Assembly: GCA_963768055.1 (NCBI GenBank)
Contig: CAVYGN010000001.1
Span: 1,568,001 to 1,632,000 of the forward strand
Length of the DNA: 64,000 bases
Source of the DNA: an uncultured Spirochaetota bacterium
Lineage (GTDB): Bacteria > Spirochaetota > Brevinematia > Brevinematales > JAOACQ01
Reading direction: 5' to 3'
A model generated the notes under the pieces. That model saw only the letters and a list, made by a program, of their open reading frames with translations, had not been told where the DNA came from and searched no databases. The position numbers and the translations under genes were made by a program. Each line of letters starts with the position of its first letter. Position 1 is the first letter of the stretch. Positions 12,542 through 58,097 of the stretch are shown here, in pieces.

Positions 12542-12543
12542 GG

Positions 12544-28547: not shown

Positions 28548-28561
28548 TGAGGAGGTTTTTT

Positions 28562-29200
28562 ATGACTATTTTAAAACATCGAGAAAAAGTAGGCGGGCTT
28601 TGGGATTTAATCGGCAAACTGCAATTTGATTTTCTTGTCAATGAGGGATTAAAACCTGAAAATTATTTATTGGATGTCGGATGCGGAAGTTTAAGAGGCG
28701 GTGTTCATTTTATTAAATATTTGAATATTGCCCGGTATTATGGATTTGATAATGATGAAGAATTGTTGAATGCCGGTAAGAATATTGAGTTAAATAATTA
28801 TCATGTTGCCGATAAAAAACCGAACTTATTGCTGGTAGATAATTTTGATTGTTCCATAATTGCTCAAAAATTCGATTATGCGTTAGCGCAATCAGTTTTT
28901 ACTCACCTGGATTTAAACAATATTATTGTTTGCCTTATTCAAATCAAAAAATTATTAAAAACCGGAGGCCGTTTTTATGTTTCTTTTTTTGAATCAAAAA
29001 AAGACATATTTGAATTGTTACCTGCAAAACATCATAGTACTGATAATATTGAGCTTTTAACTTATTTCAATAAGGATCCTTTTCATTATAATTTTCAAAT
29101 ATTTGAATGGATAAGCCAAAAAATTGGACTTAATGTTGATTATATTGGCGATTGGAACCATCCGAGAGATCAAAAAATGATGGTTTTTTATAAAAATTAG
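28562..29200 (+). CDS. Class I SAM-dependent methyltransferase
   Basis: LLDVGCGSLRGG, AQSVFTHL, WNHPRDQ. Confidence 0.85.
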   Translation: MTILKHREKVGGLWDLIGKLQFDFLVNEGLKPENYLLDVGCGSLRGGVHFIKYLNIARYYGFDNDEELLNAGKNIELNNYHVADKKPNLLLVDNFDCSIIAQKFDYALAQSVFTHLDLNNIIVCLIQIKKLLKTGGRFYVSFFESKKDIFELLPAKHHSTDNIELLTYFNKDPFHYNFQIFEWISQKIGLNVDYIGDWNHPRDQKMMVFYKN

Positions 29201-29277
29201 AATATACTAATATAAATTATCCGCTTTGAAGCACCGCACTGTCATCCGACAGCGAAGTGACCCGGGGGAGGATTTTA

Positions 29278-31474: not shown

Positions 31475-31499
31475 AAATATTTTCTGTTTATGATATGCT
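31471..31499 (+). promoter_or_regulatory. sigma70-type promoter (extended -10)
   Basis: TTGAAA-17 nt-TATGCT with TGn; upstream of the GT2-rml cluster. Confidence 0.45.
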
Positions 31500-31513
31500 A
31501 TTGGCATTCTTAA

Positions 31514-31624
31514 GGGCGGTTCCAAAAACTGACATTGTAATTAATAAATGATGTTCTAAAAGTAATAAAACCGCCCTATGGGCATTACCTTGCCGCCTTG
31601 AAAAGGCGGTTTTTAGAAGTGCCC
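31514..31624. mobile_element. MITE copy 1 (111 bp) flanked by TTAA
   Basis: TTAA-GGGCGGTTCCAAAAAC ... GTTTTTAGAAGTGCCC-TTAA; shares CGCCCTATGGGCA(T/C)TACCTTGCCGCCTTGAAAAGGCG core with the copy at 63277-63410. Confidence 0.85.
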
Positions 31625-31659
31625 TTAACTGGTTATTCAATGGAAACGAGCGTTAAATA

Positions 31660-36534: not shown

Positions 36535-37563
36535 ATGGCAAAATCGAAAAGTTTGAAAACCATACTTATAACAGGCGGAGCCGGATTTATAGGATCAAAT
36601 TTCATTCCCTACTTTCTTGAAAAATACCCGGGATACTTTATCATAAATCTCGATAAGCTTACATACGCCGGAAATCCCGTCAATTTAAAAGAGGTTTCCG
36701 GCAACCCCCGCTACCGATTTGTAAAGGGGGATATCCGCGACAGGAACCTTCTTGACTCCCTTTTTAAAACTTCCGACATAAGAGGGGTTATACATTTCGC
36801 GGCCGAGTCGCATGTCGATAATTCGATCGCCCGCCCGGCCGAATTCATACTGACTAACGTAATGGGGACTTTCAACCTGCTGGAAGCCGCCCGGAATAAC
36901 TGGATGCACAGGCCCTTTTTATATAAGGAAGAATATGCGGGCTGCAGATTCCACCATATTTCGACCGACGAGGTTTACGGAAGCCTGGGTGAAACGGGCT
37001 TATTTACCGAATCGACTCCTTATGCCCCGAATTCCCCGTACAGCGCATCGAAAGCCTCAAGCGATATGCTTGTCAGGGCTTACAACCGGACGTACGGCCT
37101 GGATACGGTCACGACCAATTGTTCCAACAATTACGGCCCCAAGCAGCACATGGAAAAACTTATTCCGACGATTATCAGGAAGGCTTTATTCGGCGCATCC
37201 ATCCCGATTTACGGAGACGGCAAAAATATAAGGGACTGGCTTTATGTCGGGGATCATTGCACCGGAATAGACCTGGCTTTCCATAAGGGCGAACCGGGCG
37301 GGACTTACAACATCGGCGGGCATAACGAAATGACAAATATAGAAATCGCGCTTAAGGTTTGCTCGATCATGGATTCGGAAAAGCCGGCTGGAGACGGAAA
37401 ACCCCGCCGTGAACTTATCTCATATGTCGAAGACCGGGCGGGCCATGACCGGAGATACGCTATTGACGCAAGCAAAATCGAAAACGAATTGGGGTGGAGA
37501 GCAGCGGAAAATTTCAATTCGGGAATCGTTAAAACCGTAAAATGGTATCTTGATAACATTTAA
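36535..37563 (+). CDS. rfbB: dTDP-glucose 4,6-dehydratase
   Basis: TGGAGFIGS, DKLTYAG, AAESHVD, STDEVYG, YSASK, CSNNYGP. Confidence 0.95.
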   Translation: MAKSKSLKTILITGGAGFIGSNFIPYFLEKYPGYFIINLDKLTYAGNPVNLKEVSGNPRYRFVKGDIRDRNLLDSLFKTSDIRGVIHFAAESHVDNSIARPAEFILTNVMGTFNLLEAARNNWMHRPFLYKEEYAGCRFHHISTDEVYGSLGETGLFTESTPYAPNSPYSASKASSDMLVRAYNRTYGLDTVTTNCSNNYGPKQHMEKLIPTIIRKALFGASIPIYGDGKNIRDWLYVGDHCTGIDLAFHKGEPGGTYNIGGHNEMTNIEIALKVCSIMDSEKPAGDGKPRRELISYVEDRAGHDRRYAIDASKIENELGWRAAENFNSGIVKTVKWYLDNI

Positions 37564-37564
37564 A

Positions 37565-39361
37565 TTACCAGGGCTTGAATATGATCCCCCGTTCAAACAT
37601 CAATTCCCTTATTTTATCGACTCCGGTTTCGGTTTCAGCGGTAAGCAGCACCAGATCCGTAGCAATATCCGTATCCGGTTCACCGACCCAGATAATATGT
37701 ATAAGATTTTCATCAAGCACTGTTTTCATGATATCCAGATCGTCCTGCGTCAGCCCGACTGCCGTTATCACGAGTATGATCCCCGCATCCATCATAAGAA
37801 AGGCGACTTCAGCGAGCCGGCGAATGTGCTCTTCCCGGTATTTTTTATGGTCGTGGTTGAGATCCGCATCGACGCCGTAAAGAATATTGCCGATGCCGAG
37901 GAAATATATGAATTTCCCTTCCTGGAACAAGATTTCCTCAAGCCTCTTGGCCAGTTTTTTTTTGCCGACGTCTTTATCCCCGGTGATCACCAGCAATGCG
38001 GATTTCTGGCTGTACCGTTCAGCTCTCTGTACTGAAGGTATGGCGCTCTTTTCCCATTTGTAATTGCGGAGTATTACTTTTTCCCGGACTTCGCTCTGCT
38101 CGTCAGGCAGGCTTTCACGGACTATGCCGCCGCCGGAAATTTCATATGCCTCGACAATAACGAATCTCCCCGTTTCAGGAATATCATTATTCAGGTCGAA
38201 TGCTATAGGCGTTCTCAGGCGGATAATGCATTCCCCCACATCATTCCGGTTGACTTTTTCGGCATTTTCAACGAATGAAAGCGTGGAAGCGTCGATCAGG
38301 CGGGGTATCGACTCGATGCGGCATGGCACTTTCGCCGTCCCCAGCTTGAACAGGTATTCCTTGTTTTTCTCAAGCGGATTTCTTCCCAGCCAGAAGAGAT
38401 TTACTCGCAAGCGCATAGAGACCAGGGGTTTTACCTCGCGGATTTTCGCAATAATTTCACCCCGGGTTACATAAATTTGTTCATCCATTGTAAAACCCGC
38501 TGCATAGCCTGCTTCCAATCCCGCTATACTGGAGCTGCCGGATGCTTCAATGGATTTTATCCTGTTTTTCTTTCCGGACGGATAAAAAACAATTTCATCC
38601 CCTGTCTGTATGCTTCCGGTCTCGATCGTTCCCGCCACGATTCTGCGATTATCTCCGTATTTCGTGAATTTATAGACATCCTGGACCGGCATCCGGAAAG
38701 GCTTGTTTGACCTGTCCTTTTCATTTTGAAAGGAATCCAGAGAATTAAGCAATGTAAGGCCCTCATACCAGGGCATATTAAATCCGGCTGACGCGATATT
38801 ATCGCCGCAAAAACCGCTGACCGGAATAAAGGAATTTGGCCGGATCGATATGCTTTTTAAAAATTCCGAAAATTCTCTTTCAATTTCCCCGAATTTATCC
38901 CGGCTGTAGCCGGCAAGATCCATTTTGTTGACAAGGACGATAACCTGGCGGATGCCGAGCATTGATAAAAGATATCCATGCCTCCTGGAATTTTCTTTAA
39001 TTCCTTCCGCGGCATCGATTACGAGAAGCGCCGCTTCGGCCCTTGAAGCGCCGGTGACCATATTCTTTAAAAATTCGATATGGCCCGGGGCATCGAGAAT
39101 TATATAATTTCTTTTTTCTGTTTTAAAAAAAACACGCGCAGTATCTATGGTTATCCCCTGCGCCTGCTCGTCTTTCAAAGCATCGATCAAAAAAGCGTAT
39201 TCAAACGGTTTTGAATTTCTCTCGCAGTTTGCCCGGACCTGTTCGAGCTTTCCCTGCGGAAGCGAATGAGTGTCCGCCAGAAGTCGGCCGACAATGGTGC
39301 TTTTTCCATGGTCGACATGACCGACGATCACAATATTCATGTTTTCTTTTTCATCTGTCAT
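37565..39361 (-). CDS. cysN: Sulfate adenylyltransferase subunit 1 with a degenerate C-terminal APS-kinase domain
   Basis: [25 protein letters not shown]-terminal [12 protein letters not shown]...DAG. Confidence 0.88.
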
Positions 39362-39378
39362 TATAGATCTCCTGATCC

Positions 39379-40260
39379 TTACATGTAGCCGTCTCGCCTC
39401 AGCGTCTCGAGGCCGCCGCAGTCATCCCTGTCCTGGGCGCGTCCCGAACGTTCGGCAATATCGGCAAACTTCCCGGTTTTTAATTCGGCAATAATTTCAG
39501 CCGGATTCCTTGCATCCGAATCGACCGGAAAAGTGCAGGGATAGCAGCCGAGCGAACGGTAGCGTTTTCCTTCCCCCTGGTTATAATAGAGTGAAACCGT
39601 TGGTATTTTTTCCCTTTCGATGTATTCCCAGATATTGACCTCCGTCCAATCCAATAAAGGATGAATTCGAAGGTGCGTTCCCGGGGCAAAGTCCGTCTTG
39701 AACTGGTTCCAGAATTCGGGGGGCTGGTCCCCGATCTTCCAGATATTTTCCTTATCGCGGGGTGAAAAATAACGTTCTTTCGACCGGGATCCTTCCTCAT
39801 CGGCCCGCACACCGACAATTACTCCCGTAAAAGCCCCCGAACCTTTTTCCAGGTCGTACCGCCCTGTCTGCAGGTTCAGCCTGTAGCGTTTCCCGCTTCC
39901 ATTGAGAGTATTCCGGAGGGCTGCCGTTTTAAGATTACTGCAGCAGGTGATCCTGTCGACATTTCCGTCGGGAAAGGTTTCTTTTTTCATCAGGGCTTCT
40001 TCATTTTTACCGAAAATCATTGTGAGCCGGTATTCCATTGCCAATCTATCGCGGTATGCGATCATTTCAGGGATTTTATAAGTCGTGTCGATATGAACAA
40101 GGGGAAACGGCACATGCCCGAAAAACGCTTTCCTTGTAAGCCATAAAAGCGTTGTGCTGTCTTTACCGATAGACCAGAGCATGCAGAGATTCTTAAAATT
40201 CGCATAGGCTTCCCGGATAATATGTATGCTTAAATTTTCCAATTTATCCAGATGATTCAT
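39379..40260 (-). CDS. cysD: Sulfate adenylyltransferase subunit 2
   Basis: [42 protein letters not shown]. Confidence 0.92.
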
Positions 40261-40881
40261 TCATGGCTCCTGTTTTTCCATAAAACTTAAAAAATGATTT
40301 TTTTCAAGATAACTAAAAATCAAATCCGACGCGTTTTCCGGCGTTTCGCTGCCCGAATCTATGATGATCTCGGGTTTTTTGGGTTCTTCATATGGGTCTG
40401 TAATTCCTGTGAAATTTTTGAGCTCGCCTTTCCTCGCTTTTTTATACAACCCTTTAGGGTCCCTCGATTCGCAAATATCGAGTGAACATTTTACATAGAT
40501 TTCAATAAATTCGCCATTTTCGACCAGTTTTCTCACTTTATCGCGGTCTTCCCGGTAAGGGGAAATAAAAGCGGTTATTACTATTATACCGGCGTCGATA
40601 AAAAGTTTCGACACTTCGCCGATCCGCCTGATATTTTCTTCGCGGTTTAACTGATCGAAGCCCAGGTCCCGGTTTAGCCCGCACCGGATGTTGTCTCCGT
40701 CGAGGAGATATGTATGGATTCCGCGTTTGTACAATTTCCGGTCTAAAAACCGGGCTATAGTCGACTTGCCGCTGGCGGACAGGCCGGTAAACCATATGAT
40801 CGCGGAAGAATGGCCGTTCAGCCTGCGTCTCTCTTCTTTCACAACGGATAACTGATAAGGATATAAATTGTTTTCAGACAT
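40261..40881 (-). CDS. cysC: Adenylyl-sulfate (APS) kinase
   Basis: WFTGLSASGKST, LDGDNIR, FISPYR, RDPKGLY, FTGITDPYE. Confidence 0.95.
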   Translation of the reverse strand: MSENNLYPYQLSVVKEERRRLNGHSSAIIWFTGLSASGKSTIARFLDRKLYKRGIHTYLLDGDNIRCGLNRDLGFDQLNREENIRRIGEVSKLFIDAGIIVITAFISPYREDRDKVRKLVENGEFIEIYVKCSLDICESRDPKGLYKKARKGELKNFTGITDPYEEPKKPEIIIDSGSETPENASDLIFSYLEKNHFLSFMEKQEP

Positions 40882-40882
40882 T

Positions 40883-41647
40883 TCAGCTTATCACTCCTTT
40901 AATATACTCTTTTGTCAATTCCTGTTTCGGGTTCTCGAAAATCTGCCCGGCTGTACCGGATTCCACAAGCTCGCCCATATACATAAAGATGACATGATCC
41001 GCTATTCTTTTTGCCTGCCTCAAAATATGTGTTACGAATACAACGGTGTAGTTTTCTTTCAATTTAAGGAGGGTTTGTTCGATATAACGGCTTGAAAAAG
41101 GGTCCAGAGATGATGTGGGTTCGTCCCCCAGAATAATTTCGGGTTCTACGGCAAGACCCCTGGCCAGGCAAAGCCTCTGCTGCTGGCCCAGAGAAAGTCT
41201 TGACGCGGGTGAGTGGAGCCTTTCTTTTACCTCTTCCCAGAGATTTACCATTCTCAGATATTTTTCAACTATTCCATTAACGGATTTTCTGCCTCTCAAG
41301 CCATGGATTCTCGGGCCGTAGGCTATATTATCAAATATCGACATCGGCAATGGCGAGGGTTTTTGAAGTAAAAGTCCCATTTTTTTCCTGATCCCGGTAA
41401 CATCCGCATGGGGGTCAAGAACATTTTCACCGTCGACAATGATTTCCCCGTTTATTGTAACATTTTCTTCCAGATCGATCAAACGGTTAAATGATTTAAG
41501 CAGGGTGGATTTACCGCAGCCGGAAGGACCGATGATCACTGTCACCTTCTTATCCGGAATAACGAGAGATATGTCTTTCAACGCTTCAATTTTGCCGAAT
41601 TTAACGTTCAAATGGTTTACTATAATATGGGATCGATTTTCAGTCAT
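40883..41647 (-). CDS. pstB: PstB-family ABC ATPase
   Basis: GPSGCGKST, SIFDNIAYGPR, LSLGQQQRLCLAR, DEPTSSLDP. Confidence 0.85.
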   Translation of the reverse strand: MTENRSHIIVNHLNVKFGKIEALKDISLVIPDKKVTVIIGPSGCGKSTLLKSFNRLIDLEENVTINGEIIVDGENVLDPHADVTGIRKKMGLLLQKPSPLPMSIFDNIAYGPRIHGLRGRKSVNGIVEKYLRMVNLWEEVKERLHSPASRLSLGQQQRLCLARGLAVEPEIILGDEPTSSLDPFSSRYIEQTLLKLKENYTVVFVTHILRQAKRIADHVIFMYMGELVESGTAGQIFENPKQELTKEYIKGVIS

Positions 41648-41659
41648 ATACTCCGCACC

Positions 41660-42511
41660 TTATTTGATCGTATTTTTAGCCAATTTCAAATTTAGAATTC
41701 GTATAATTACATTGATAATAAATATAAAAACGGTAAGTATTAAAGCGGCTGAATAAGCCCTGTTCTGAACCTCCGGGTATGGCGTCCCCAATTGGAAAAA
41801 TATTGCAAGCGGCAGGGTGGCGGCAGGCGAAAAAAGGGAATCCGGAATGTTATCCGTAAATCCGGCCGTATATAAAACTGAAGCTGCGTCTCCCACTCCC
41901 CTTCCGAAAGCGATTATTATAGCTGTAAGCAGCCCCGGCAAAGCCTGCCTTATAACAACCCTGAAAGCCGTTTCGAACCGGGTCGCGCCCAGGGCGAAGG
42001 ATGCACAGGTTAATTCCTTTGAAACAAGGGCAACGACTTCATCAAGCATCCTGGCGAGGATAGGCAGGACTAAAAGAGCTACGGTTACTATTCCTCCCAG
42101 AAGGGAGACTTTCAAACCCAGATAAAGCATTAAAGAAAATCCGAAAGCCCCGTAAACAATGGATGGAATACCCCATAAAACATCGAAGCAAAAGCGGGTT
42201 ATTTGAACAAGCAATGAATTTTTTTTTGCGAAAATATGGAGGTAAAGGATTATAGGCAGGGAAATCAGCAATCCAAGAATTACTCCACCCAATCCGATAT
42301 AAGCCGATCCTATTATCGCATTTAAAATCCCGCCCTTCCTGCCGGTATAAAAGCCTCCCTGCGGTGTTTTAAGGATCATATCCCAGTTAAAACCCTTGAT
42401 CCCTTTTGACAGTATTGTAAAAAGGATCATGCAGAGAAGTGCAAGAATGATAAAAGAACAAAACCGCATTAAAAAAACAAAAATCCTTTCTTCCAATTTT
42501 CTCATGTTCAT
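41660..42511 (-). CDS. pstA: PstA-family ABC permease
   Basis: GGILNAIIGS, GIPSIVYG, ALGATR, ATLPL. Confidence 0.85.
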   Translation of the reverse strand: MNMRKLEERIFVFLMRFCSFIILALLCMILFTILSKGIKGFNWDMILKTPQGGFYTGRKGGILNAIIGSAYIGLGGVILGLLISLPIILYLHIFAKKNSLLVQITRFCFDVLWGIPSIVYGAFGFSLMLYLGLKVSLLGGIVTVALLVLPILARMLDEVVALVSKELTCASFALGATRFETAFRVVIRQALPGLLTAIIIAFGRGVGDAASVLYTAGFTDNIPDSLFSPAATLPLAIFFQLGTPYPEVQNRAYSAALILTVFIFIINVIIRILNLKLAKNTIK

Positions 42512-43422
42512 AAACGGAGCCCTTTTTCAATTCTTAAAAGCATCCATCGGGAAACAACGTTGAAAAAGATCACTACGGCAAGTAAAATTAGCGCCGCCAG
42601 CATCAGTGCGGAATCGAAAAGCGGGATTGAAAGCATCTCCCCGTAACTGTTTGCAATCAGTGCGGGCAGGGGATATACGGGATCGAATATCGAATGGGGG
42701 ATCTTTGCCACATTTCCGGCAACCATTAAAACAGCCATAGTCTCGCCGAAAGCCCTCGACATTGCAAGCACAACTCCGGCCACTATGCCCGGAAAATTTT
42801 TCCTCAGGATTACGTTTTTAACTGTTTCCCATTTGGTAGCGCCGACGGCTAATGAAGCCATCCTGATTTCTACCGGCACTGTGCGGAATATTTCAACGAA
42901 TATATTCACCATTACAGGTATGATCATCACCGCAAGCACGATAGACGCCGATAACATGGAGTATCCGGAAACATTGATCCCCAGATAAGGGGCTATAGTC
43001 TCTTTGACCCATGGAACGATCACTAAGACCCCCCACAATCCGAAAACGACCGATGGAATTCCCGCTAAAAGATCGACCATAGGAATGAAAAAATTCCGCA
43101 ATGTTTTGGATGCATATTCCGAAAGATATATCCCGGTTAAAAGGCATACCGGAACCGCCAGAATAAGGGCGCCGAAAGTTACCCAGACAGTGCCGGTTAT
43201 AAAAGGCAGAAAACCGAACTTTCCTTTCATCGGATGCCAATTTTCAGAAAAGAACAATTTTGAAAGAGGATTTTCACGCAGGATCGGCAGCGATTTTACT
43301 AAAAGCAGTATAAATATGAAAATTAACAGGAACCAGCAAAAAAAGACCAGGAGCCTTGCGCTGTTTTCAAATAAACGGTCTTTTAAAATCCTGAAGTATG
43401 GCGCCATTTTCAAGCCCGTCAA
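42508..43422 (-). CDS. pstC: PstC-family ABC permease
   Basis: YLSEYA, LAGIPSVVFGLWG, GATKWET, SRAFGETMAV. Confidence 0.85.
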   Translation of the reverse strand: MTGLKMAPYFRILKDRLFENSARLLVFFCWFLLIFIFILLLVKSLPILRENPLSKLFFSENWHPMKGKFGFLPFITGTVWVTFGALILAVPVCLLTGIYLSEYASKTLRNFFIPMVDLLAGIPSVVFGLWGVLVIVPWVKETIAPYLGINVSGYSMLSASIVLAVMIIPVMVNIFVEIFRTVPVEIRMASLAVGATKWETVKNVILRKNFPGIVAGVVLAMSRAFGETMAVLMVAGNVAKIPHSIFDPVYPLPALIANSYGEMLSIPLFDSALMLAALILLAVVIFFNVVSRWMLLRIEKGLRL

Positions 43423-44363
43423 AAGCCGATTTTCTTCATCTGTTCCTGAATCCTGGATTCCTCAATAGGAACGTAACCGGTTTCTTCGATATACTTCCTT
43501 CCCTGTGTCAGCGCCCACTTTACGAATTCTATAACAATCTTTTTGTGGGGCCTGCCCTTGAAGGCAAAATACAGGTCCCGGGCCGGAGGCGAAGGATATT
43601 TGTTTTCAGAGATCGCTTTTGTCAATTCAAAAAGACTATGATAAAAATCCTCATCCGCATCGATTTTCCCGTTCCCGTTTATATCGATCGGCAGTACGGC
43701 TATTCCCGGGATCGGCTGCCCTGTTCTGAAGTCGTAAGCAAAACTTATATTGTTATACCCGATGCCGAAGGTGTCTTTTTTTACCGCTTCAACAACCCCC
43801 GGATCGCCGAAAACCCCGACCCCTTTCAAATCCTCCTGATTTTTTCCAAGGTATGCCGCCCAGGTGCTGGCTGCTCCGCATGAATCGGAACGGGTATAAA
43901 TATTGATAGTGTCGTTTTTATTGTATCTGTAAAGTTCTTCCCAGCGCGACACCGAACCTTCTATGAAAATTTGTTTGAACTGCTTCTTTTTTAAACCCGA
44001 TTCCCGGATTTTCCCCAGCAACGGATTATTCACATTTACCGTACATACAACCGCATCGCGGGCCATGGCGATCCAGGTTATACCCTTATCTTCTTCGATC
44101 TTCGAAATTTCCCTGGATATGCTCCCGATGTCCGCCATTCCGGTAAGCGTATCCACCATACCCTTTCCTGCCCCGGCCGCCGATATATCGAATTTTACAT
44201 CCGGGTGGATTTTTTTGAATTCTTCCGCCCATTTGACTTCCATAGGGTACAGGGCAAAAGCCCCGGAAATTGTGATTGTTTTTTCCGGAGAACCGCCGCT
44301 GCCGCACGAACATACAATCATTGCAAAAAATGTAAGGAATACGGCCCGATAAAATTTACTCAT
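43419..44363 (-). CDS. PstS-family substrate-binding lipoprotein with atypical ligand residues (substrate uncertain)
   Basis: Lipoprotein-like signal (IVCSC); PBP2 fold motifs ISGAFALYP, GAGKG, ADIGSISR, RSDSCGA, IGY, YPSPPARDLY. Confidence 0.8.
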   Translation of the reverse strand: MSKFYRAVFLTFFAMIVCSCGSGGSPEKTITISGAFALYPMEVKWAEEFKKIHPDVKFDISAAGAGKGMVDTLTGMADIGSISREISKIEEDKGITWIAMARDAVVCTVNVNNPLLGKIRESGLKKKQFKQIFIEGSVSRWEELYRYNKNDTINIYTRSDSCGAASTWAAYLGKNQEDLKGVGVFGDPGVVEAVKKDTFGIGYNNISFAYDFRTGQPIPGIAVLPIDINGNGKIDADEDFYHSLFELTKAISENKYPSPPARDLYFAFKGRPHKKIVIEFVKWALTQGRKYIEETGYVPIEESRIQEQMKKIGF

Positions 44364-44388
44364 ATATACCTCAAAAATTAAGATTATG

Positions 44389-44793
44389 CTAGATAAAATC
44401 ATGAAGGCTTAAATTCTCCAGCCGGGCAGATATATAATCCCTGATATCTTTCATAACTGCAAGGACTTTTTTTTCATTCTCAATCGGGGTATGCTCAAAA
44501 AAATAGGTGCTGACGGACTCGGTCGGCGCTAGTGCGCCGTCCATTAACCTGATAACCTGGGCCAGTGAAATATCCTTCGGATCTCTGGCAAGCTTATAGC
44601 CGCCGCTGGAACCCCTTTTGGTCTTTATGATTGAATTTTGCTTTAACAGCAGGAATAACTGCTCCAGGTATTTTTTTGAAATATGGTATTGCCGGCAGAT
44701 AGCCTCGATTTTGACATATTCATGTTCGTCTTGATTGCGCGCTATATACAGCAGGGCCAGCAGGGAATATTCGCTTTTTGTCGTAAGCTTCAT
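44389..44793 (-). CDS. Rrf2-family transcriptional regulator (CymR-like; no IscR cysteine triad)
   Basis: MKLTTKSEY, ISKKYLEQL, RGSSGGYKLA, IRLMDG. Confidence 0.9.
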   Translation of the reverse strand: MKLTTKSEYSLLALLYIARNQDEHEYVKIEAICRQYHISKKYLEQLFLLLKQNSIIKTKRGSSGGYKLARDPKDISLAQVIRLMDGALAPTESVSTYFFEHTPIENEKKVLAVMKDIRDYISARLENLSLHDFI

Positions 44794-44803
44794 ACCTTGT
44801 CCG

Positions 44804-44849
44804 TATACAAGTTTAGTTATAGTATAGGCAAGGTATAGAAGCCTGTCAA
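44804..44849 (-). promoter_or_regulatory. Promoter of the Rrf2-pst-cys unit with overlapping candidate operator
   Basis: Minus strand TTGACA (44849-44844)-17 nt-TATACT (44826-44821); imperfect palindrome TATACTAT-N7-CTTGTATA at 44826-44804. Confidence 0.7.
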
Positions 44850-44869
44850 GTTAGGAAAGCATATCGCTA

Positions 44870-45520
44870 TCAGCCTATCCAGAGTCCTTCTATGCGAACC
44901 TGAAATCCGTCTTTGATTTTGAATAAAGCGTTAACAAGGCCGCAATGACGCCACTGGAGCATGCAATATCGCGGAAGGAAATAATACCTTTTCCCGATTT
45001 CCAGATTTACCCGGCTGTTCCTTACAATCCCTTCGTAAGCGGTCGTATTATAATACCCGATGTTGATGCCTCTTTCCCTGGCCTGTAGCGGCCCGGTTAC
45101 ATTCCAGACAACCGTTCCGTTAAAATAATCGGGTTCATCGACGATAACACCCGCATGAGTGACCGGGCATCCGCAGGAAATCCAGGCGGGTCTTCCGTAA
45201 ATTACATCCCCTCTTTTTAGCTTCAATTTTTCCACATTTGTAGGATTAAAAAGGATGATCGTTTCTCTCGGGCCAAGATCCTCTTTAAAGGTCTCCAGAA
45301 CAAAATCGTATTCCCGTTCCAGATTATCTTTCCAGCTTATGTTATTTAAAGATTCCTCAATCCGGCCGGTTCTGTCCGATTTTTCTTCATTAAATATGCA
45401 TCTTTCAAGTAATTCCGAATTATTCGAAGCGGAATCAGCCAATTCATTACAGGTTTTAAATCCGCAAATTCCGCAGTTTTTCCCCGGCAGTTTGAATTCA
45501 CTGTTTTGATCCATATTCAT
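44870..45520 (-). CDS. Fe-S-binding protein (N-terminal four-Cys domain plus Cys/His-rich C-terminal domain)
   Basis: LPGKNCGICGFKTC...C; SCGCPVTH; YCMLQWRHCG. Confidence 0.75.
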   Translation of the reverse strand: MNMDQNSEFKLPGKNCGICGFKTCNELADSASNNSELLERCIFNEEKSDRTGRIEESLNNISWKDNLEREYDFVLETFKEDLGPRETIILFNPTNVEKLKLKRGDVIYGRPAWISCGCPVTHAGVIVDEPDYFNGTVVWNVTGPLQARERGINIGYYNTTAYEGIVRNSRVNLEIGKRYYFLPRYCMLQWRHCGLVNALFKIKDGFQVRIEGLWIG

Positions 45521-46215
45521 TCCCCTCTATAAAAAATATTCGAATCCAGCGGCCTCAGGACTCCATGATGCGCCTCTTTGCCGATCTCTTTCTTGCCTAC
45601 GCATATCGTGCAGGTGCCTACCGGAGGATTGCCTTTAAGCAGAATCGGATAGTGGAGGTTTTCAACATCCATGATCTTTTGCGAAACATAACCGATATTG
45701 ATTCCATGAAGGGCGTCGCTTTCTATTACAGGGACCGAGGCGGTTTCCTCTATTGTAGCGCGAAATACTTCACGCTCCGCCTGTGAAACCAGATCTATCT
45801 TTGTAACGACGGCAATATCGGCCAGGGATAGCATGGGACCGATCTTCCTCGGCAGGTTCATGCCGCTGGTCGCTTCTATGACGACAATTCCGAGGGCATG
45901 GTCGATATAAGGCGAACAGCGCAGGCACAATCCGGCCGTTTCCACGATCAGGATATCGGAAGACTCATTGACAGCCCATTTGATAGCGTCGCCCAGAACA
46001 ATGACATTGCAGTGGTCGGGGCAAAGATCGCCGGAATATACCTTCTTTGTCGGGATTCCGAATTCCTGATGGATAATAGAATCTTCATCCGCAAATTGCA
46101 CGTCTATTTTAAGATAACTGACCCTGAGATTTTCTTTCTGCAATTTTTTAATAACCTGTTTGATGACGGTTGTTTTACCGCTGGTAGGCGGCCCTGCGAA
46201 AATAGCTGCTTTCAT
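45517..46215 (-). CDS. CobW/HypB/UreG-like P-loop GTPase
   Basis: AGPPTSGKT, KID, LCPDHC, VETAGLCLRCSP, TKID, C-terminal CTICVG. Confidence 0.8.
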   Translation of the reverse strand: MKAAIFAGPPTSGKTTVIKQVIKKLQKENLRVSYLKIDVQFADEDSIIHQEFGIPTKKVYSGDLCPDHCNVIVLGDAIKWAVNESSDILIVETAGLCLRCSPYIDHALGIVVIEATSGMNLPRKIGPMLSLADIAVVTKIDLVSQAEREVFRATIEETASVPVIESDALHGINIGYVSQKIMDVENLHYPILLKGNPPVGTCTICVGKKEIGKEAHHGVLRPLDSNIFYRGE

Positions 46216-47036
46216 TGTATGTTTTCCCCCTTTGACATACTATATCCGAATGCTATGAGCCTCTCATTCAGCATATCTTCAGTCAATCTTTCTCCATTGC
46301 GGATCTGTTTTCGGAAATATAGTATAATATCGTCCAGTTTTTTGATCTCTTCCGCAACCCTGAGTTCTTCATCATGGGCCATTATCAGCTGCTGCATAGC
46401 GCCGTTTTTCATAACGACACGGTAATCCGAAAGCAGGGCTATTCTCGGGTCATGCGTGACAAAAATAAATATTTTTTCATACTTTTTAAGAAGCTCAAGG
46501 GCCTTGGTCCGGTGTATTCCCGCATTCTCGATTTCATCCAGCAGTATGATCGGAGAATTACCTATTATTACGGCATCCGCGATGAGAAGGGCCCGGGTCT
46601 GGCCTCCCGAAAGCTCCGTCATTTTATTGTGGACCTCTATGGGTTCTCCGGTCAGCTGGTTTGAAAAATCCAGTGTTTCCTCGATTATCGAATCCGGCCT
46701 CAATGTCTTCCTTATCCGCGCATGTTTCGTTAAAAAGTCGCTGACATTCAAATCTGAAAGAAAATTAGTATGCTGGGTTATGAGGGCGATCGGATGGAGG
46801 GAAGGTTCAAGCGTTCTGCTGTTCGCTGTTCTCTCGCCGTTGATAAAAATCTTCCGTCGCGTCGGTGTGTTGTCGTTTGCAAAGAGTTCGATGTCGTTGA
46901 TCAAGGTGGTTTTTCCCGACCCCGTAGGTCCGACAATACTGATAATGTCGCCCATTTTTAAAGTGATTTCAGCGATCTTGTCCGGTTCGCCTTTTTTGCC
47001 GATTCCGCCGATAATCGTAAGCGATTGAATTTCCAT
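46212..47036 (-). CDS. Stand-alone ABC-type ATPase (no adjacent cognate permease)
   Basis: GPTGSGKT, LSGGQ, ILLDEIE, VTHD. Confidence 0.82.
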   Translation of the reverse strand: MEIQSLTIIGGIGKKGEPDKIAEITLKMGDIISIVGPTGSGKTTLINDIELFANDNTPTRRKIFINGERTANSRTLEPSLHPIALITQHTNFLSDLNVSDFLTKHARIRKTLRPDSIIEETLDFSNQLTGEPIEVHNKMTELSGGQTRALLIADAVIIGNSPIILLDEIENAGIHRTKALELLKKYEKIFIFVTHDPRIALLSDYRVVMKNGAMQQLIMAHDEELRVAEEIKKLDDIILYFRKQIRNGERLTEDMLNERLIAFGYSMSKGENIQ

Positions 47037-47080
47037 AGTTATCTCCCCTATATTAAAATATTCAATACTGAAATTTTATT

Positions 47081-48238
47081 TCACCTCGACCATATCGAAT
47101 TCAGGTTTTTTATGCTTTTTAAAAGAATATCAAGAAAACGGTCAATATCTTCCTCCGTTGTCTGCCTCCCAAGAGTAATGCGCAATGCCCCGATAGATTG
47201 AACAGGATTGCGGCCGATAGCTGCCAGCACATGAGATATTTTTTTTGAATTTGACGAACATGCTGAACCTGTTGAAACGCATATTCCTTCCCGGTCCAAC
47301 GCCATGAGCAAATTCGGGGCCTGTCCTTCGAGGCCGTTAAACCCTATATTAACATTATTGGGAAGGCGGATATCCCTATGCCCGTTCAGGTAAGCCGATG
47401 AAATATTTTCAATAACGGTTCCGATAATTCTATCTCTCAGCGCCTGGAGCCGCCCGGACTCATCCTCTAAACCTTCTAAACACAGCCGGACGGCTTTTGC
47501 AAAACCGACAATTCCGGGAACATTTTCAGTCGATGAGCGCATCCCGTATTCCTGCCCTCCGCCATGCTGCCATGGCGTCAATTTTATTCCATTCCGGATA
47601 TATAATGCGCCTATTCCCTTCGGACCATAAATTTTATGGGAATTGATCGTCGCCAGATCGACATTAAATTTTTCAACGTCGAAAGGAATTTTGCCGAACG
47701 ATTGGCATGCATCGGTATGAAAACAGACTCTGTTTTCCCGGCAGAACCTGCCTATTATTTCAATCGGTTGTATGACGCCGATTTCGTTATTGGCATGCAT
47801 AACGGACACCAAAATGGTTTCCGGAAGAAAACTGTTTTTCAACCGGTCGGTATCGATAAGCCCGTCCGAATCGACCGGGATAAAAGAAATATTAAAACCC
47901 TGGGTCTGGAGCCATTTGCATGAATTAATAATGCAATCGTGTTCGATCGCAGAAACAATTATATGATTCCCTCTTGCCCTGTTGGCGAAGGCATATCCTT
48001 TCAGTGCCAGATTATTGGATTCCGTCCCTCCCGAGGTAAATACCAATTCTTCAGCATAAGCGCTAATAGAGGAAGCTATCTCCATCCTGGCATTTTTTAC
48101 CGCTTCATGCGCTTCGAATCCTTTACTATGAAGGCTGGAGGGGTTTCCAAAACCTTCTGAAAAATACGGCATCATAGCCTGAAGGACCCTGCCGTCCATA
48201 GGAGTTGTAGCCGCGTTATCCAGATAAATTGCTTTCAT
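47081..48238 (-). CDS. Cysteine desulfurase (IscS/NifS type)
   Basis: YLDNAATT, FTSGGTESNN, HTDACQ, SHKIYGPKG, STGSACSS. Confidence 0.9.
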   Translation of the reverse strand: MKAIYLDNAATTPMDGRVLQAMMPYFSEGFGNPSSLHSKGFEAHEAVKNARMEIASSISAYAEELVFTSGGTESNNLALKGYAFANRARGNHIIVSAIEHDCIINSCKWLQTQGFNISFIPVDSDGLIDTDRLKNSFLPETILVSVMHANNEIGVIQPIEIIGRFCRENRVCFHTDACQSFGKIPFDVEKFNVDLATINSHKIYGPKGIGALYIRNGIKLTPWQHGGGQEYGMRSSTENVPGIVGFAKAVRLCLEGLEDESGRLQALRDRIIGTVIENISSAYLNGHRDIRLPNNVNIGFNGLEGQAPNLLMALDREGICVSTGSACSSNSKKISHVLAAIGRNPVQSIGALRITLGRQTTEEDIDRFLDILLKSIKNLNSIWSR

Positions 48239-48264
48239 GATTTTCTCTCTATAAAAAAATAATA

Positions 48265-48320
48265 ATTGTATATAAAGTCCATAGACAATATATATTATAT
48301 CAAATCCGATGTTTTGTCAA
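48265..48320 (-). promoter_or_regulatory. Promoter and candidate Rrf2 operator for the desulfurase-ATPase-GTPase-FeS unit
   Basis: Minus strand TTGACA (48320-48315)-17 nt-TAATAT; downstream palindrome ATTGTCTA-N9-TATACAAT (48289-48265). Confidence 0.55.
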
Positions 48321-48436
48321 TAATTATTTTAAAATTATTTTAAAAGATTGTTTTACTTATTTAATTTCAAATTATATAATATTTAATCATTCCCGAATTA
48401 AATATACGAAAATCAAAAAATCATTAAGGATTCAGC

Positions 48437-49480
48437 ATGGAACAAAAATTAGATAAAAAATGTATGTTCGTCCTCGGCATGCACCGGAGCGGGACTTCGC
48501 TTGTAATGGGCGCATTAAATAAAATGGGCGTTTATCTGGGCAATGATTTGTTAAAACCTACTGCGGACAATCCGAAAGGTTATTTTGAAAATCAAAATCT
48601 GGTCGATATCGATGAGAAAATATTATCCTGTTATAATTCATCATGGGATGATTTATTGATCCTCGATAACGATTTTGCAAAAAATGAAAAGTTCGAACAG
48701 ATATTGATCGATATAAAACAATTTATTGAAAAGGAATTTGCCGGCATTCCTGTTTTCGGATTGAAGGATCCCCGATTGTGCAGGCTTCTTCCATTTTGGG
48801 ACAGTGTTTTGACAAAAATGAAAATACAGGAATATTTTATAATACCCCTGCGCAATCCCCTTGAAATAGCCGCCTCCCTTGAAAATAGAGATGGATTCAG
48901 CCTGGAAAAATCTTTTATTCTCTGGATGAATCACATGTTTGAAGCTGAATTATATACAAGAGGAAAGAACCGTATTTTTATAAATTATGACTACCTGCTT
49001 AAGCAGCCGGAAACCGCTGTCGAATCTATTATAAAAAAATTAAATATCGATTATTTAACGACTTACCGGCAAATGAAATCCGAATTGGATGATTTATTTG
49101 ATCCGGACCTGAAACATTTTAATATGCCGGATATAAGGGGCGATAAACGGCTTATTGAACTTGTCCATGAATTTCATATTTCTTTACTTAATTTGTCGCA
49201 CGACGATATGTCCGAAAAGGAATTGATTAAAATAAATGAACAAAGGGAAAGATATTATAAACAGCACCGTTTTTTTTATAACAGGGATTTGGTAGATTTA
49301 TTGAACTTATTGAAAGAAACCAAGATCATTAATCATAATTTGACTGTTGAATTATGGAATACAAACAGCCTGTTGCAGGAAAAAGAAAAAATAATAGATG
49401 AAATTTATAATTCAAGAGGCTGGAAATTAATTACAAAATACCGGGAAATAAAGCTAAAGATTTTTCCGAAACATGGTTAA
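48437..49480 (+). CDS. Sulfotransferase-family protein with coiled-coil tail
   Basis: VLGMHRSGTS, NPKGYFE, LKDPRLC, RNPLEIAASL; C-terminal YNSRGWK motif seen in glycan-locus proteins. Confidence 0.78.
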   Translation: MEQKLDKKCMFVLGMHRSGTSLVMGALNKMGVYLGNDLLKPTADNPKGYFENQNLVDIDEKILSCYNSSWDDLLILDNDFAKNEKFEQILIDIKQFIEKEFAGIPVFGLKDPRLCRLLPFWDSVLTKMKIQEYFIIPLRNPLEIAASLENRDGFSLEKSFILWMNHMFEAELYTRGKNRIFINYDYLLKQPETAVESIIKKLNIDYLTTYRQMKSELDDLFDPDLKHFNMPDIRGDKRLIELVHEFHISLLNLSHDDMSEKELIKINEQRERYYKQHRFFYNRDLVDLLNLLKETKIINHNLTVELWNTNSLLQEKEKIIDEIYNSRGWKLITKYREIKLKIFPKHG

Positions 49481-49678: not shown

Positions 49679-50458
49679 ATGTTTAAGGAAATTCAGGAAG
49701 CGTTCAAATACAGATTTGTCATACAAAACTATGTTTATACCAATCTCAAACTGAAATACAGAAGATCCCTGCTGGGTTACTTATGGGCCGTCATTGCTCC
49801 CATGTTCAGATATCTGGTAATCGGCATAGTATTTTATTATATCTCCAAAATGAGGGACCCGCATTATTTCGGATTTATGTTTATGGGATCGATATTTTAC
49901 AGTTATATGACCGTAGTGCTTCTGGCCAGTACTAATGTTTTCATTCAAAACGAAATGTATATTAAAAAAATTTACGTGCCTAAACTTGTATTCGTGCTGA
50001 ACATTATTTTTTATGAAATGGTTAATTTCGCATTGGTTTTGCTCGGCATTATACTTCTGGGCCTTATTTTAGGCCAGCTGCAATTATCCTTTTATATGTT
50101 TATGATGATCTATGCCGTAATAATCACAACCTTTTTTTTAATAGGATGGGCCGCCATATTGGGGGTTATTACCATCTATTTCAGGGATTTGACGCATATG
50201 CTGGACATACTCCTTCAGGCCGTTTATTTCGCGACCCCGATCCTTTATTCGGTAGCGATTTTACCTAAAACATTTGCCGGCCTTGTCAAGCTCAACCCTT
50301 TTTATTATTTTGTGGAATTATTCAGGGTGCCCGTGCTCCAGCAAAAGTTTCCCGATCCCGACATCCTGCTGGTAACATTCGGCCTGTCGGTTCTGTCGTT
50401 CTTTTTAGGACTGATGATATTGAAAAAGTTTAACAATAGAATTGTATTCAAATTATAA
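49679..50458 (+). CDS. wzm: Polysaccharide ABC exporter permease
   Basis: KLKYRRSLLGYLW, YFRDL, YFATPILY, LNPF. Confidence 0.88.
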   Translation: MFKEIQEAFKYRFVIQNYVYTNLKLKYRRSLLGYLWAVIAPMFRYLVIGIVFYYISKMRDPHYFGFMFMGSIFYSYMTVVLLASTNVFIQNEMYIKKIYVPKLVFVLNIIFYEMVNFALVLLGIILLGLILGQLQLSFYMFMMIYAVIITTFFLIGWAAILGVITIYFRDLTHMLDILLQAVYFATPILYSVAILPKTFAGLVKLNPFYYFVELFRVPVLQQKFPDPDILLVTFGLSVLSFFLGLMILKKFNNRIVFKL

Positions 50459-50470
50459 GGACTTGAAAAT

Positions 50471-51274
50471 ATGAACCCTAAAGATTGTAAAATAAAGTTT
50501 GAAAACGTTTCACTTACATATGACCTCTACTATGATAAAACAACATCTCTTAAAGAGTTCCTCATCAATTTAGTTGTTAGAAGAAAATATGTTGAAAAAA
50601 AATTAGGCAAGTTGAACGCATTGAACAAGATCAACCTGGAAATCGAGCATGGGCAAAGACTCGGCGTAATCGGCTTGAACGGGGCCGGCAAGAGCACCCT
50701 TCTCAAAGTAATAGCCGGACTTTTAAAACCCACAGAAGGCAATATTGAAATTTTCGGAAATGTACAGCCTTTAATAGAAGTTGGGGCCGGTTTTAACATG
50801 GAATTCAGCGGAAGGGAGAATATTTATTTTAACGGAGCGATGCTCGGGTTCTCGAAAAAGGAAATAAAGGAAAAAGAGGAAGAGATCATAAAATTTTCAG
50901 AACTGGATAGATTCATCGATGTGCCGGTTAAATATTATTCATCTGGAATGATCTTGAGACTGGCTTTTACGATCGCGACCATAATTCATCCCGAGATATT
51001 GGTTCTGGATGAAATAATATCAGCGGGAGATATCGAGTTTATCCAGAAAGCCAAGGAAAGGATCAATAAACTGCTTAGTTCCGCAAAGATACTTGTGATT
51101 GTAAGCCATGACCTGGGTTTGATAAAGTCGTTAGCCTTACGGACAATCGTCCTGGAACATGGAGAGATAATTTTTAACGGTGAGACGAAAGAGGCGATTG
51201 AATTTTATCATGATAAGGCATTAAGAGATATGGAATCAAGAAAAATCAAGGAATCCCAGAATGCGGGGAAATGA
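50471..51274 (+). CDS. wzt: Polysaccharide ABC exporter ATPase (no C-terminal carbohydrate-binding domain)
   Basis: GLNGAGKSTLL, SGRENI, YSSGM.LRLAF, LVLDE, VSHD. Confidence 0.9.
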   Translation: MNPKDCKIKFENVSLTYDLYYDKTTSLKEFLINLVVRRKYVEKKLGKLNALNKINLEIEHGQRLGVIGLNGAGKSTLLKVIAGLLKPTEGNIEIFGNVQPLIEVGAGFNMEFSGRENIYFNGAMLGFSKKEIKEKEEEIIKFSELDRFIDVPVKYYSSGMILRLAFTIATIIHPEILVLDEIISAGDIEFIQKAKERINKLLSSAKILVIVSHDLGLIKSLALRTIVLEHGEIIFNGETKEAIEFYHDKALRDMESRKIKESQNAGK

Positions 51275-57090: not shown

Positions 57091-58097
57091 AAACGCGCCT
57101 TCATGCGCTTATTACGGATAATTTTTTTAACGGAAAAAGCTAAAAATGAAAGGTTTTGATATAAACCCCTTTTTGTAAAGGGGAAAAACCTGTATTCTTT
57201 TAAAGACGCTTTTTTGTTTTTAAGGAAAACGGGCCTGTTGTTTTTTATAAAAGAATTGTAGGCGGCTGTAAGATAACCGTCCGCCTTATTTTTCCGGTAA
57301 TCGGTATTATCGATATATCCGCTAAGGCCCGGGCTGCTTTTTAAAAAATCATCCATAACTTTAAAAAAAGCAGGTAAATCTTCGCTTCTTTCCCAATATG
57401 AAGAACCCTGTCCGGCCGTTCTTCTATAGTTTAATAAAGGCTCGTCGATAATCGCCATTGAATAACCCTTGTTCATAATCTTAAGCCATAATTCAAGGTC
57501 TTCATTGGATGGATAATTGTTGGTAAAACCTCCCGACTGTTCAAAAATATTTTTACGGGTCATAAAACTCGGGCAGGCGAAAAAATTTCCCGTTTTAATC
57601 AAAAAAGGGAGGTAATCGTTTAAATATCCCTGAAAACAGCCTAATTCACGGTTCAGCAAACCCGATCTTTCAAGGCCGCGGTAAATGGACGGACAACGAA
57701 AAGACGCCGGGTATTCCCCGTAAAATTCCCTGAACCTGGTAAAAACACCCCCTGAGTCCGGAATTCTGTCAAGAATAAATTTCTCCCTTTCAACAATACC
57801 GGGTTCGTAGATATCATCGGCGTGATAGACCGCTATAAAACCTGAACCTGCATGCCGGACGGCTTCGCTGATATTCCTTACATATCCTATATTATCCGTG
57901 TTTTTAAAATACCTGATCCTTTTGTCTTTCCTTTCAAATTCGGAGATTATCCCCGCCGTGCCGTCGGTCGAGTCGTTATCGCTGATAATAATTTCAATAT
58001 TCCCGTAGGTTTGCTCCAGGAGGCTTGACAGCGTCTTTCCTATATATCTCCCGGCATTGTATGCCGGTATGCAGACCGAGACCAGATCTTCTTTCAT
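57087..58097 (-). CDS. Glycosyltransferase family 2
   Basis: VSVCIPAYN, SDNDSTDGT, HADD, EDLELW. Confidence 0.88.
   Translation of the reverse strand: MKEDLVSVCIPAYNAGRYIGKTLSSLLEQTYGNIEIIISDNDSTDGTAGIISEFERKDKRIRYFKNTDNIGYVRNISEAVRHAGSGFIAVYHADDIYEPGIVEREKFILDRIPDSGGVFTRFREFYGEYPASFRCPSIYRGLERSGLLNRELGCFQGYLNDYLPFLIKTGNFFACPSFMTRKNIFEQSGGFTNNYPSNEDLELWLKIMNKGYSMAIIDEPLLNYRRTAGQGSSYWERSEDLPAFFKVMDDFLKSSPGLSGYIDNTDYRKNKADGYLTAAYNSFIKNNRPVFLKNKKASLKEYRFFPFTKRGLYQNLSFLAFSVKKIIRNKRMKARL

Follow-up and report, generated by a model that had tools for sequence, protein, structure and literature searches.

A conserved, uncharacterised four-gene sulfur module in an uncultured spirochaete, tentatively read as a source of sulfite-level sulfur

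We have analysed a stretch of 64,000 nucleotides (nt; hereafter the window) from an uncultured Spirochaetota bacterium of the order Brevinematales (assembly GCA_963768055.1, contig CAVYGN010000001.1, positions 1,568,001 to 1,632,000), in which four consecutive genes encode a cysteine desulfurase (NifS2), a soluble ATP-binding cassette (ABC) ATPase, a GTPase of the G3E group and an iron-sulfur (Fe-S) protein with a PF04060 domain, the last three being referred to here as the trio. An earlier note, made from the letters of this DNA, had taken them for an uncharacterised sulfur-linked module, with sulfur relay, cluster assembly or sulfur assimilation as candidate functions. They are indeed a real and conserved one, as the full ATPase-GTPase-FeS trio was found in 62 of the 64 loci where the sequence upstream of the FeS gene extends for 2.9 kb or more. 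Regarding its function, we tentatively favour, as a possibility well short of an even chance, a machine driven by nucleoside triphosphates (NTPs) and fed by cysteine, which would carry out redox chemistry and supply sulfite-level inorganic sulfur to the biosynthesis of oxidised-sulfur compounds, here the branch of 3'-phosphoadenylyl sulfate (PAPS) and sulfation. The four genes of the module, in positions of the window, are the following.

47081-48238, minus strand: NifS2, class-I (IscS/NifS-type) cysteine desulfurase, 385 aa
46212-47036, minus strand: soluble ABC-type ATPase, 274 aa
45517-46215, minus strand: G3E (HypB/UreG-like) GTPase, 232 aa
44870-45520, minus strand: PF04060 Fe-S protein, 216 aa

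The ATPase and GTPase genes overlap by 4 nt (46212-46215), as do the GTPase and FeS genes (45517-45520), and a gap of 44 nt separates the end of NifS2 from the start of the ATPase gene. These overlaps and the preceding desulfurase, already described in the earlier note, can all be read in the sequence, together with the motifs it had listed for the GTPase (LCPDHC, LCLRC, and CTIC) and for the Fe-S protein (C16-x2-C19-x4-C24-x16-C41, SCGCPVTH, and YCMLQWRHCG), and the NifS-NifU pair that it had placed elsewhere in the window (NifU, 5599-6567; NifS1, 6591-7757).

A pattern scan of genomes, with each species represented once, yielded 35 loci. A scan of metagenomes added 80 more to reach a total of 115, some of which duplicate genome loci on the same contigs (L042 with L003 and L083 with L032; L and G numbers designate our loci and genomes). 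A survey of neighbourhoods had been proposed to see if the trio co-occurs elsewhere, and it does recur, being complete in 33 of the 35 genome loci besides the 62 of 64 with enough flank, where the two misses correspond to a partial FeS gene (L033) and an undetected GTPase (L081). Among 74 complete-trio loci the order is ABC-GTPase-FeS in 55, ABC-GTPase-NifS-FeS in 18 and GTPase-FeS-ABC in a single one. Identities range between 54 and 77% across loci, with record titles that name many bacterial groups and also archaea. The arrangement is confirmed to be far beyond chance.

The Fe-S protein matches PF04060 along residues 11-43 only (Pfam scan). All 54 family members, out of 54, match PF04060 as well, with no other family appearing consistently. 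From bacteria to archaea, among members at 28-69% identity, residues C16, C19, C24, C41, R110, C118, H122, E163, C186, H192, R209, and E211 are invariant, and many arginines are conserved. The family is compact, since its profile matches only 265 of 1.84 billion cluster representatives at E<=0.001, and its public names are generic (the ESM Atlas gave PF04060 clusters with generic names only). An AlphaFold2 (AF2) model obtained from an alignment of 127 sequences (predicted local distance difference test, pLDDT, 88.6; predicted template modelling score, pTM, 0.72) has a beta-rich C-terminal domain of ca. 150 aa (modelled residues 63-216), while an earlier model from 20 sequences was poor (pLDDT 55.8) and was not used. 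Searches with residues 63-216 gave 0 matches at E<=0.001 against pdb with Foldseek, and with VIA-align (wide) none with Z of 5 or above, the best (Z 4.3) being phage tail and PilZ-like small barrels. The C-terminal domain has neither a Pfam family nor a clear solved fold, that is, no usable match, which is not proof of a new fold.

The GTPase has a cobW/HypB/UreG domain (7.5e-13, Pfam scan) and scores far below the models of HypB (TIGR00073, 50 vs. a cut-off of 121.2) and UreG (TIGR00101, 30.1 vs. 204.2), with HypB 2hf8 (4.4e-5) and UreG 4hi0 (5.9e-5) as its best solved relatives. The G3E motifs GPPTSGKT, ETAG, and TKID are legible, and in 42 sequences (mean column identity of 81%) the residues C65-P-D-H68-C69, C97-x2-C100, C202-x2-C205, and H216 never change, leaving a Cys/His site (C65, H68, C69, C97, and C100) invariant; its Cys-Pro-x-His-type motif we take to be comparable to the metal sites of HypB and UreG. 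The ATPase is an ABC_tran protein (6.4e-17, Pfam scan) that reaches no NCBIfam cut-off among the matches listed (the best, 62.9 bits vs. 550) and has generic solved relatives only. It contains no cysteine, and across 48 sequences there is no variation in Walker A, the Q-loop (Q88), LSGGQ, Walker B (D167-E168), or H195. Its lack of a membrane partner, pointed out before, holds across loci, where no permease gene is conserved next to it, and also within the window, where the nearby permeases have their own ATPases (PstB for the downstream PstCA-like permeases, and another one for the ABC-2 exporter at 49679-51274).

NifS2 belongs to Aminotran_5 (PF00266, 4.7e-82, Pfam scan), passes the IscS-subfamily model NF002806 (333.1 bits vs. 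a cut-off of 304) and falls below the NifS equivalog TIGR03402 (477.6 vs. 530.75). The SHK lysine for pyridoxal phosphate (PLP) and the GSACSS active-site cysteine loop are legible in its sequence, and by fold, PLP lysine, cysteine loop, and model cut-off it is a class-I IscS/NifS desulfurase. In 30 of the 115 loci the trio has a desulfurase next to it, and the full-length module-embedded desulfurases of other loci are all (28 of 28) nearer to NifS2 (45-63% identity) than to NifS1 (36-42%). Because they share the clade of NifS2, the fourth gene belongs to the module, and this module-specific clade bears out the earlier suspicion that the second desulfurase has a job other than that of a spare NifS. 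A NifS-FeS fusion (P0201, a 314-aa fragment), in which the C-terminus of a desulfurase continues into the N-terminus of an Fe-S protein via an odd 70-residue linker, may be a frame error and was left out.

The machine that we tentatively favour would begin with NifS2, which would take sulfur from L-cysteine as an enzyme-bound persulfide; cysteine is the likely input because a desulfurase of this clade adjoins the trio so often (the 30 loci mentioned above). The Fe-S protein would be the working part, its N-terminal [4Fe-4S] domain moving electrons and its C-terminal Cys118/His122/Cys186/His192 site, with Arg110, Glu163, Arg209, and Glu211, binding a metal or a sulfur intermediate. A redox role is suggested because PF04060 is present in all members and the Cys/His/Arg/Glu set is invariant. 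The HypB-like GTPase, through its three invariant Cys motifs, would load or gate the Cys/His site of the Fe-S protein, and the ABC ATPase may give conformational work instead of driving a permease. We infer that the proteins form a complex with these individual roles and that the redox step runs in the oxidative direction, the product being sulfite-level inorganic sulfur, made without oxygen from reduced sulfur, that could serve oxidised-sulfur pathways in sulfate-poor anoxic habitats. The client pathway would be cysteate and coenzyme M synthesis in archaea, and in the genomic island described here the branch that leads from sulfate to PAPS and sulfation, with a Pst-like importer as a putative scavenging route. 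A bolder version, an oxygen-independent, NTP-driven "sulfite synthase" that uses an Fe-S/metal protein of a new kind to oxidise sulfur from cysteine (from sulfide in the case of methanogens) to sulfite, is possible although somewhat doubtful.

One different explanation is that of a dedicated, SUF-like metallocluster assembly system, where NifS2 would give the sulfur, the GTPase would give or carry the metal or cluster, the ATPase would play the role of SufC, the Fe-S protein would act as scaffold or electron donor and the neighbouring Rrf2 protein as an IscR-like regulator. The composition of isc and suf operons parallels that of the module, Rrf2 genes adjoin the trio in 20 of the 74 complete loci, and the invariant CPDHC, CxxC, and CxxC motifs of the GTPase and a soluble ATPase with intact catalytic motifs would also suit this role. 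A second cluster system would have to be specialised, given that a NifS/NifU pair is already in the window. However, no client gene is conserved alongside the module, whose neighbours are sulfur-metabolite genes and no particular metalloenzyme; its proteins match no Pfam family beyond those named, and all three are unusually conserved for accessory factors. Besides, IscR carries three cluster-ligand cysteines, whereas the Rrf2 protein of the window has a single cysteine (C33) and no Fe-S ligand cysteines; it passes the superfamily model (111 vs. 73.3) and misses the equivalog cut-offs of IscR (77.6 vs. 207.55) and CymR (75.5 vs. 195). The SufC model is not among the 25 of 157 NCBIfam matches listed for the ATPase, and no SufB/D match appeared among the proteins of the 12-gene array (see below) in the Pfam and NCBIfam scans, the rest of the genome not having been searched for SufB. 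We regard cluster assembly as quite unlikely.

The neighbourhoods elsewhere are rich in sulfur genes, including those of Cys-less Rrf2 regulators. Sulfate-activation genes adjoin 7 of the 74 complete-trio loci and sulfur-type transporters 9. The trio of L034 and L043 is enclosed in a transporter operon (Rrf2-PstS-like-trio-PstC-PstA-PstB, with a convergent Sat gene), that of L008 and L013 is found between an Rrf2 gene plus an SsuA/NMT1-type binding protein and the ATPase of that system (the permease being seen in L013), and in L021, a locus cut short, the binding protein and the trio are visible. Permeases of the TauE/SafE family adjoin the trio in L001, L016, and L057, cysteate synthase and ComDE (sulfopyruvate decarboxylase), both above cut-off, are found in L022 and L056 without an MMP16 match, and L011 contains a sulfotransferase gene and the module with NifS, CysD, and CysNC in one array. 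Genes for reduced sulfur are found too: CysK above cut-off (L089 and L097) or just below it (CysK-like, L048 and L049), MetY-type enzymes beside the trio (L088 and L106, the latter also with a ThiF/MoeB-like protein), a ThiI-like protein beside the trio (L048), and MnmA (L001). Neighbours that mix oxidised- and reduced-sulfur genes are the profile expected of a sulfur converter or trafficker.

Two other kinds of neighbour were seen. Genes for B12-radical SAM proteins flank the trio in L034, L110, and L118. In a betaproteobacterial metagenome-assembled genome (MAG; L027:1938-4110), SelD and the tRNA 2-selenouridine synthase MnmH come directly before the trio, which hints that the machine may also handle selenium in that organism; a selenium role for the module of the window found no support, its host giving no tblastn match to the L027 SelD.

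In archaea, according to the Figure 2 legend of PMC12068725, an ATPase, a Ni2+-binding GTPase and an Fe-S protein with a COG2000 domain are often colocalised with coenzyme M biosynthesis, their role being unknown. With this homologous trio in print as such, the earlier statement that no characterised pathway is known for the combination still stands; no functional study of the trio was found in the literature, where "COG2000" appeared only in versions of that article and in one unrelated paper. We sampled 301 genomes from the phylum of one archaeal carrier, 16 of which have a FeS homolog, and fetched 8 loci. All eight contain the trio in the same order (tblastn of the window proteins) together with cysteate synthase and ComDE, and all eight have MMP16, located directly after the FeS gene in seven and convergent after ComE in the eighth. 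Compared with the window, the archaeal ATPase shows 44-50% identity, the GTPase 40-50% and the FeS protein 29-35%, and the archaeal FeS alignment keeps the four cluster cysteines as well as C118, H122, C186, and H192. Sulfite is treated as a substrate in the papers that we consulted. The presence of the archaeal trio with cysteate synthase and ComDE, and of TauE/SafE permeases next to other trios, is the reason for linking the module to sulfite. Sulfate is an unlikely source of this sulfite in the archaeal carriers because ATP sulfurylase is missing from all 15 archaeal trio genomes. The PAPS_reduct-domain proteins of these carriers lie in frames of 640-800 aa, unlike CysD or CysH.

These same loci could also be explained by delivery of reduced sulfur, i.e., a cysteine-derived persulfide, sulfide or small metal-sulfur unit handed to MMP16/COG1900 enzymes, CysK, MetY, and ThiI-like or MnmA-like proteins, the sulfate genes being mere fellow members of a sulfur regulon. 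The embedded desulfurases, MMP16 directly after the FeS gene in seven of eight archaeal loci, and the CysK, MetY, ThiF/MoeB-like, ThiI-like, and MnmA neighbours would all agree with it, as would the sulfur donors of the thiol-forming COG1900 enzymes, described as unresolved in PMC12068725. Yet it is unlikely in our view, because the trio is embedded in operons of oxyanion or sulfonate importers (L034, L043, L008, L013, and L021), L022 and L056 have cysteate synthase and ComDE with no MMP16, and neither the 115 bacterial and metagenome loci nor the host gave an MMP16 homolog. Moreover, the island has no thiol-forming enzyme, and CysK and MetY of the host are 1.1 Mb away beside another Rrf2 gene.

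This island is an unbroken array of twelve minus-strand genes from CysN to NifS2 (open reading frames, ORFs, of the window with Pfam and NCBIfam scans). Apart from the module it comprises the following genes.

44389-44793, minus strand: Rrf2-family regulator (Rrf2, 3.6e-29)
43419-44402, minus strand: PstS-like binding protein of a divergent Pst-like ABC importer
42508-43422, minus strand: PstC, above its NCBIfam cut-off
41660-42511, minus strand: PstA, above its NCBIfam cut-off
40883-41647, minus strand: PstB (328.7 vs. a cut-off of 343.2)
40261-40881, minus strand: CysC, sulfate activation (APS_kinase, 3.3e-70)
39379-40260, minus strand: CysD, sulfate activation (PAPS_reduct, 1.1e-35)
37565-39361, minus strand: CysN, sulfate activation (TIGR02034, 339.4 vs. 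a cut-off of 336.1)

CysC and CysD also exceed the cut-offs of NF003013 (284.7 vs. 163) and NF003587 (336.5 vs. 195), respectively. CysN has a weak, probably degenerate, C-terminal domain of adenylyl sulfate (APS) kinase (44 bits), and the separate full CysC follows CysD. Since a canonical PstSCAB-PhoU operon is found on contig 2 (PstS, 361 bits), the importer of the window (40883-44402), which comes without PhoU, is a second paralog, and its PstS-like protein misses the PstS cut-off (103.1 vs. 206.6). The Asp of the GASDAP motif lets PstS prefer protonated phosphate over sulfate. In module-linked PstS-like proteins this canonical motif becomes GSISRE (window) or GMVSRD; with the Asp motif so replaced, a fully ionised oxyanion is a reasonable candidate ligand, and the importer may take up sulfate or another such oxyanion and not phosphate.

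The FeS gene was found in 1 of 40 relatives and the island in two of the five genomes of the genus. One same-genus genome has the whole CysN-to-NifS2 block as a collinear unit of 10.8 kb with 81% DNA identity, while three others are devoid of it, one of them having a CysD/N-like stretch elsewhere. The module is accessory, and within the genus the 10.8 kb block comes and goes as a whole. In the sole relative with the island (G334, C1:2221669-2222314, L148/L149) the FeS ortholog is split in two frames (residues 1-172 and 163-215), by a frameshift or an assembly error. Consensus scans point to two promoter-like sites.

48292..48320, minus strand: promoter-like site upstream of NifS2 (TTGACA-17-TAATAT, 10/12, consensus match only)
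44821..44849, minus strand: promoter-like site in the gap that separates the FeS and Rrf2 genes (TTGACA-17-TATACT, 11/12, consensus match only)

The site at 44821..44849 is the best promoter-consensus match within 37000-49000, and pattern matching of this kind, taken by itself, suggests that the array consists of two transcription units. The earlier note had the module co-regulated with the adjacent sulfate genes; the linkage is real in this lineage, as the collinear block attests, and co-regulation is no more than a possibility; the scans suggest two promoters. Just downstream of the -10 of both sites (44799-44810 and 48277-48288, minus strand) we found TTGTNTANGGAC, which occurs 3 times in the 3.69 Mb host genome. 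This pattern was derived post hoc from the two sites themselves, and a 10/12 match between two 100-nt regions is expected by chance ca. 0.4 times by our estimate; as a shared Rrf2 operator it is a weak lead.

Elsewhere the window is given over to glycan synthesis, with glycosyltransferases, rml genes, the ABC-2 exporter, and sulfotransferase genes, the latter being two.

27687-28547, plus strand: sulfotransferase (clear Sulfotransfer_1 match)
48437-49480, plus strand: candidate sulfotransferase (weak Sulfotransfer_3 match)

This gene content suggests a sulfated surface polysaccharide as the PAPS sink of the host. ORF 36535-37563 was considered as a hidden sulfoquinovose synthase and turned out to be a dTDP-glucose 4,6-dehydratase (469 bits vs. 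a cut-off of 365). Among the glycosyltransferases and sulfotransferases there are four large ORFs (25109-27721, 29257-30975, 58097-59653, and 60665-62884; 518-870 aa) with no Pfam family, the first two of them without an NCBIfam match either. A truncated DDE transposase (11587-12297, minus strand, profile positions 201-434 only) adjoins stretches of low G+C content (12000-20000 and 28000-32000, 0.33-0.39 vs. ca. 0.44-0.49 elsewhere), and the glycan region gives the impression of having been acquired in part by horizontal transfer.

The host assembly, a MAG of 3.69 Mb in 2 contigs, is 94.75% complete, and absences from it, as from the other MAGs, are provisional. It gave 0 matches to NIR_SIR (siroheme sulfite reductase), its sole PAPS_reduct match is CysD, with no CysH, and no archaeal-type cysteate synthase, ComA, Oxidored_molyb sulfite oxidase domain or MMP16 homolog was found. 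CysK and MetY form a separate cluster with an Rrf2 gene, the one at 1.1 Mb from the island; this Rrf2-CysK-homocysteine synthase cluster (L122, G000:C1:458000-467000) adjoins a gene for a B12-binding radical SAM protein.

A host with CysDN, CysC, CysK, and MetY and with neither CysH nor NIR_SIR could be thought to reduce sulfate in a non-canonical way, the Fe-S protein replacing (P)APS reductase and/or sulfite reductase so that sulfate imported by the Pst-like system would provide sulfide for CysK and MetY. The module occupies here the place that cysH and cysJI have in cys operons, and the combination of a [4Fe-4S] domain, conserved cysteines, and many conserved arginines would be adequate for such a reductase. 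There are three other trio genomes without NIR_SIR (G002, G003, and G004), two of them (G003 and G004) also without CysH candidates, and the third (G002) with CysD and one weak 31.5-bit PAPS_reduct match only. Nevertheless, no anticorrelation of the trio with sulfite reductase was found, NIR_SIR proteins coexisting with it in 18 of the 32 trio genomes, and G001 has a canonical CysH-sulfite reductase pair in addition to the trio. The lack of ATP sulfurylase in the archaeal trio genomes (0/15) is also against it, the embedded desulfurase and the two NTPases would be left unexplained, and PAPS has an obvious other use in these genomes since sulfotransferases are present. Replacement of CysH or sulfite reductase fits the host and three other genomes and fails as a general rule, and we consider this explanation very improbable.

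Returning to the supply of sulfite-level sulfur, its oxidised-sulfur side in this host is deduced from CysDN and CysC, which make PAPS, the absence of NIR_SIR, the presence of sulfotransferases and the co-inherited 10.8 kb block. APS kinase is common to most carriers, being present in 25 of the 32 trio genomes, against a rough baseline of 6 matching genomes among 14 controls at an equal threshold. Several findings weigh against it. No sulfite-using or sulfite-to-sulfate enzyme was found in the host genome, and supplying cysteate synthase or ComA is not the general role of the module, as only 5 of the 31 other trio genomes encode an archaeal-type cysteate synthase and none (0/31) has ComA above cut-off. 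MMP16, a thiol-forming coenzyme M synthase, fits reduced-sulfur delivery equally well in the seven archaeal loci where it directly follows the trio, and the CysK, MetY, ThiF/MoeB-like, and ThiI-like neighbours use reduced sulfur. Finally, we know of no precedent for a protein of 216 aa that oxidises sulfur by four to six electrons with neither siroheme nor haem nor molybdenum. A reading restricted to sulfite for cysteate synthase or ComA suits the archaeal loci, L022 and L056, and is disfavoured by the context in this host, which has no known sulfite users.

To our knowledge, it is an unsolved question where strict anaerobes get the sulfite that goes into coenzyme M and other sulfonates. The module is the best-conserved unassigned gene set at the steps of sulfite supply and of sulfur donation to COG1900 enzymes. 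In the window we find the same machine with a dedicated desulfurase and linked to genes of PAPS synthesis and sulfate uptake, in a host without known sulfite users or sulfate reducers. Were it a sulfite synthase, it would close a long-standing gap, that of where the sulfite in coenzyme M and other sulfonates comes from, and anaerobes in sulfate-free habitats would gain oxidised sulfur for sulfated or sulfonated molecules of the cell surface. If its function were a new sulfur redox reaction, the module would bring with it a new class of enzymes and a new domain, raise the functional branches of G3E GTPases to five, and bear on methane biology.

Among known systems, SUF (SufS plus SufBC2D) resembles the module in combining a desulfurase with a soluble ABC-type ATPase and a partner that bears cysteines, in many cases together with a regulator of the Rrf2 type. 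In the module, however, the place of SufB/D is taken by a protein with PF04060 and an unmatched domain, the G3E GTPase comes in as obligate third member and the neighbourhoods consist of sulfur-metabolite genes. The GTPase shares with HypB and UreG the G3E fold and the P-loop, ExxG, and TKxD motifs, and differs from them in two extra invariant CxxC motifs, in scores far below the family cut-offs and in the hydrogenase or urease genes, which were not seen beside the module. With RnfB and corrinoid Fe-S proteins, the Fe-S protein has in common the Cx2Cx4Cx16C [4Fe-4S] domain (residues 11-43), although this 33-residue domain is all they share, and RnfB models score 20.5 vs. 68.7. Compared to the phosphate transporter PstSCAB, the importer reaches the cut-offs of PstC and PstA, while the PstS equivalog, the PhoU partner and the anion-site motif are missing. 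The closest system is the coenzyme M-associated trio of archaea, with the same three families in the same order, full-length homology, and the invariant Cys/His/Arg/Glu set. Contrary to the archaeal loci, the island of the window has no coenzyme M genes and its neighbours are a Pst-like importer and CysC/D/N, so that what it adds to the shared trio is a dedicated desulfurase, an Rrf2 regulator without ligand cysteines, and a block for sulfate uptake and activation.

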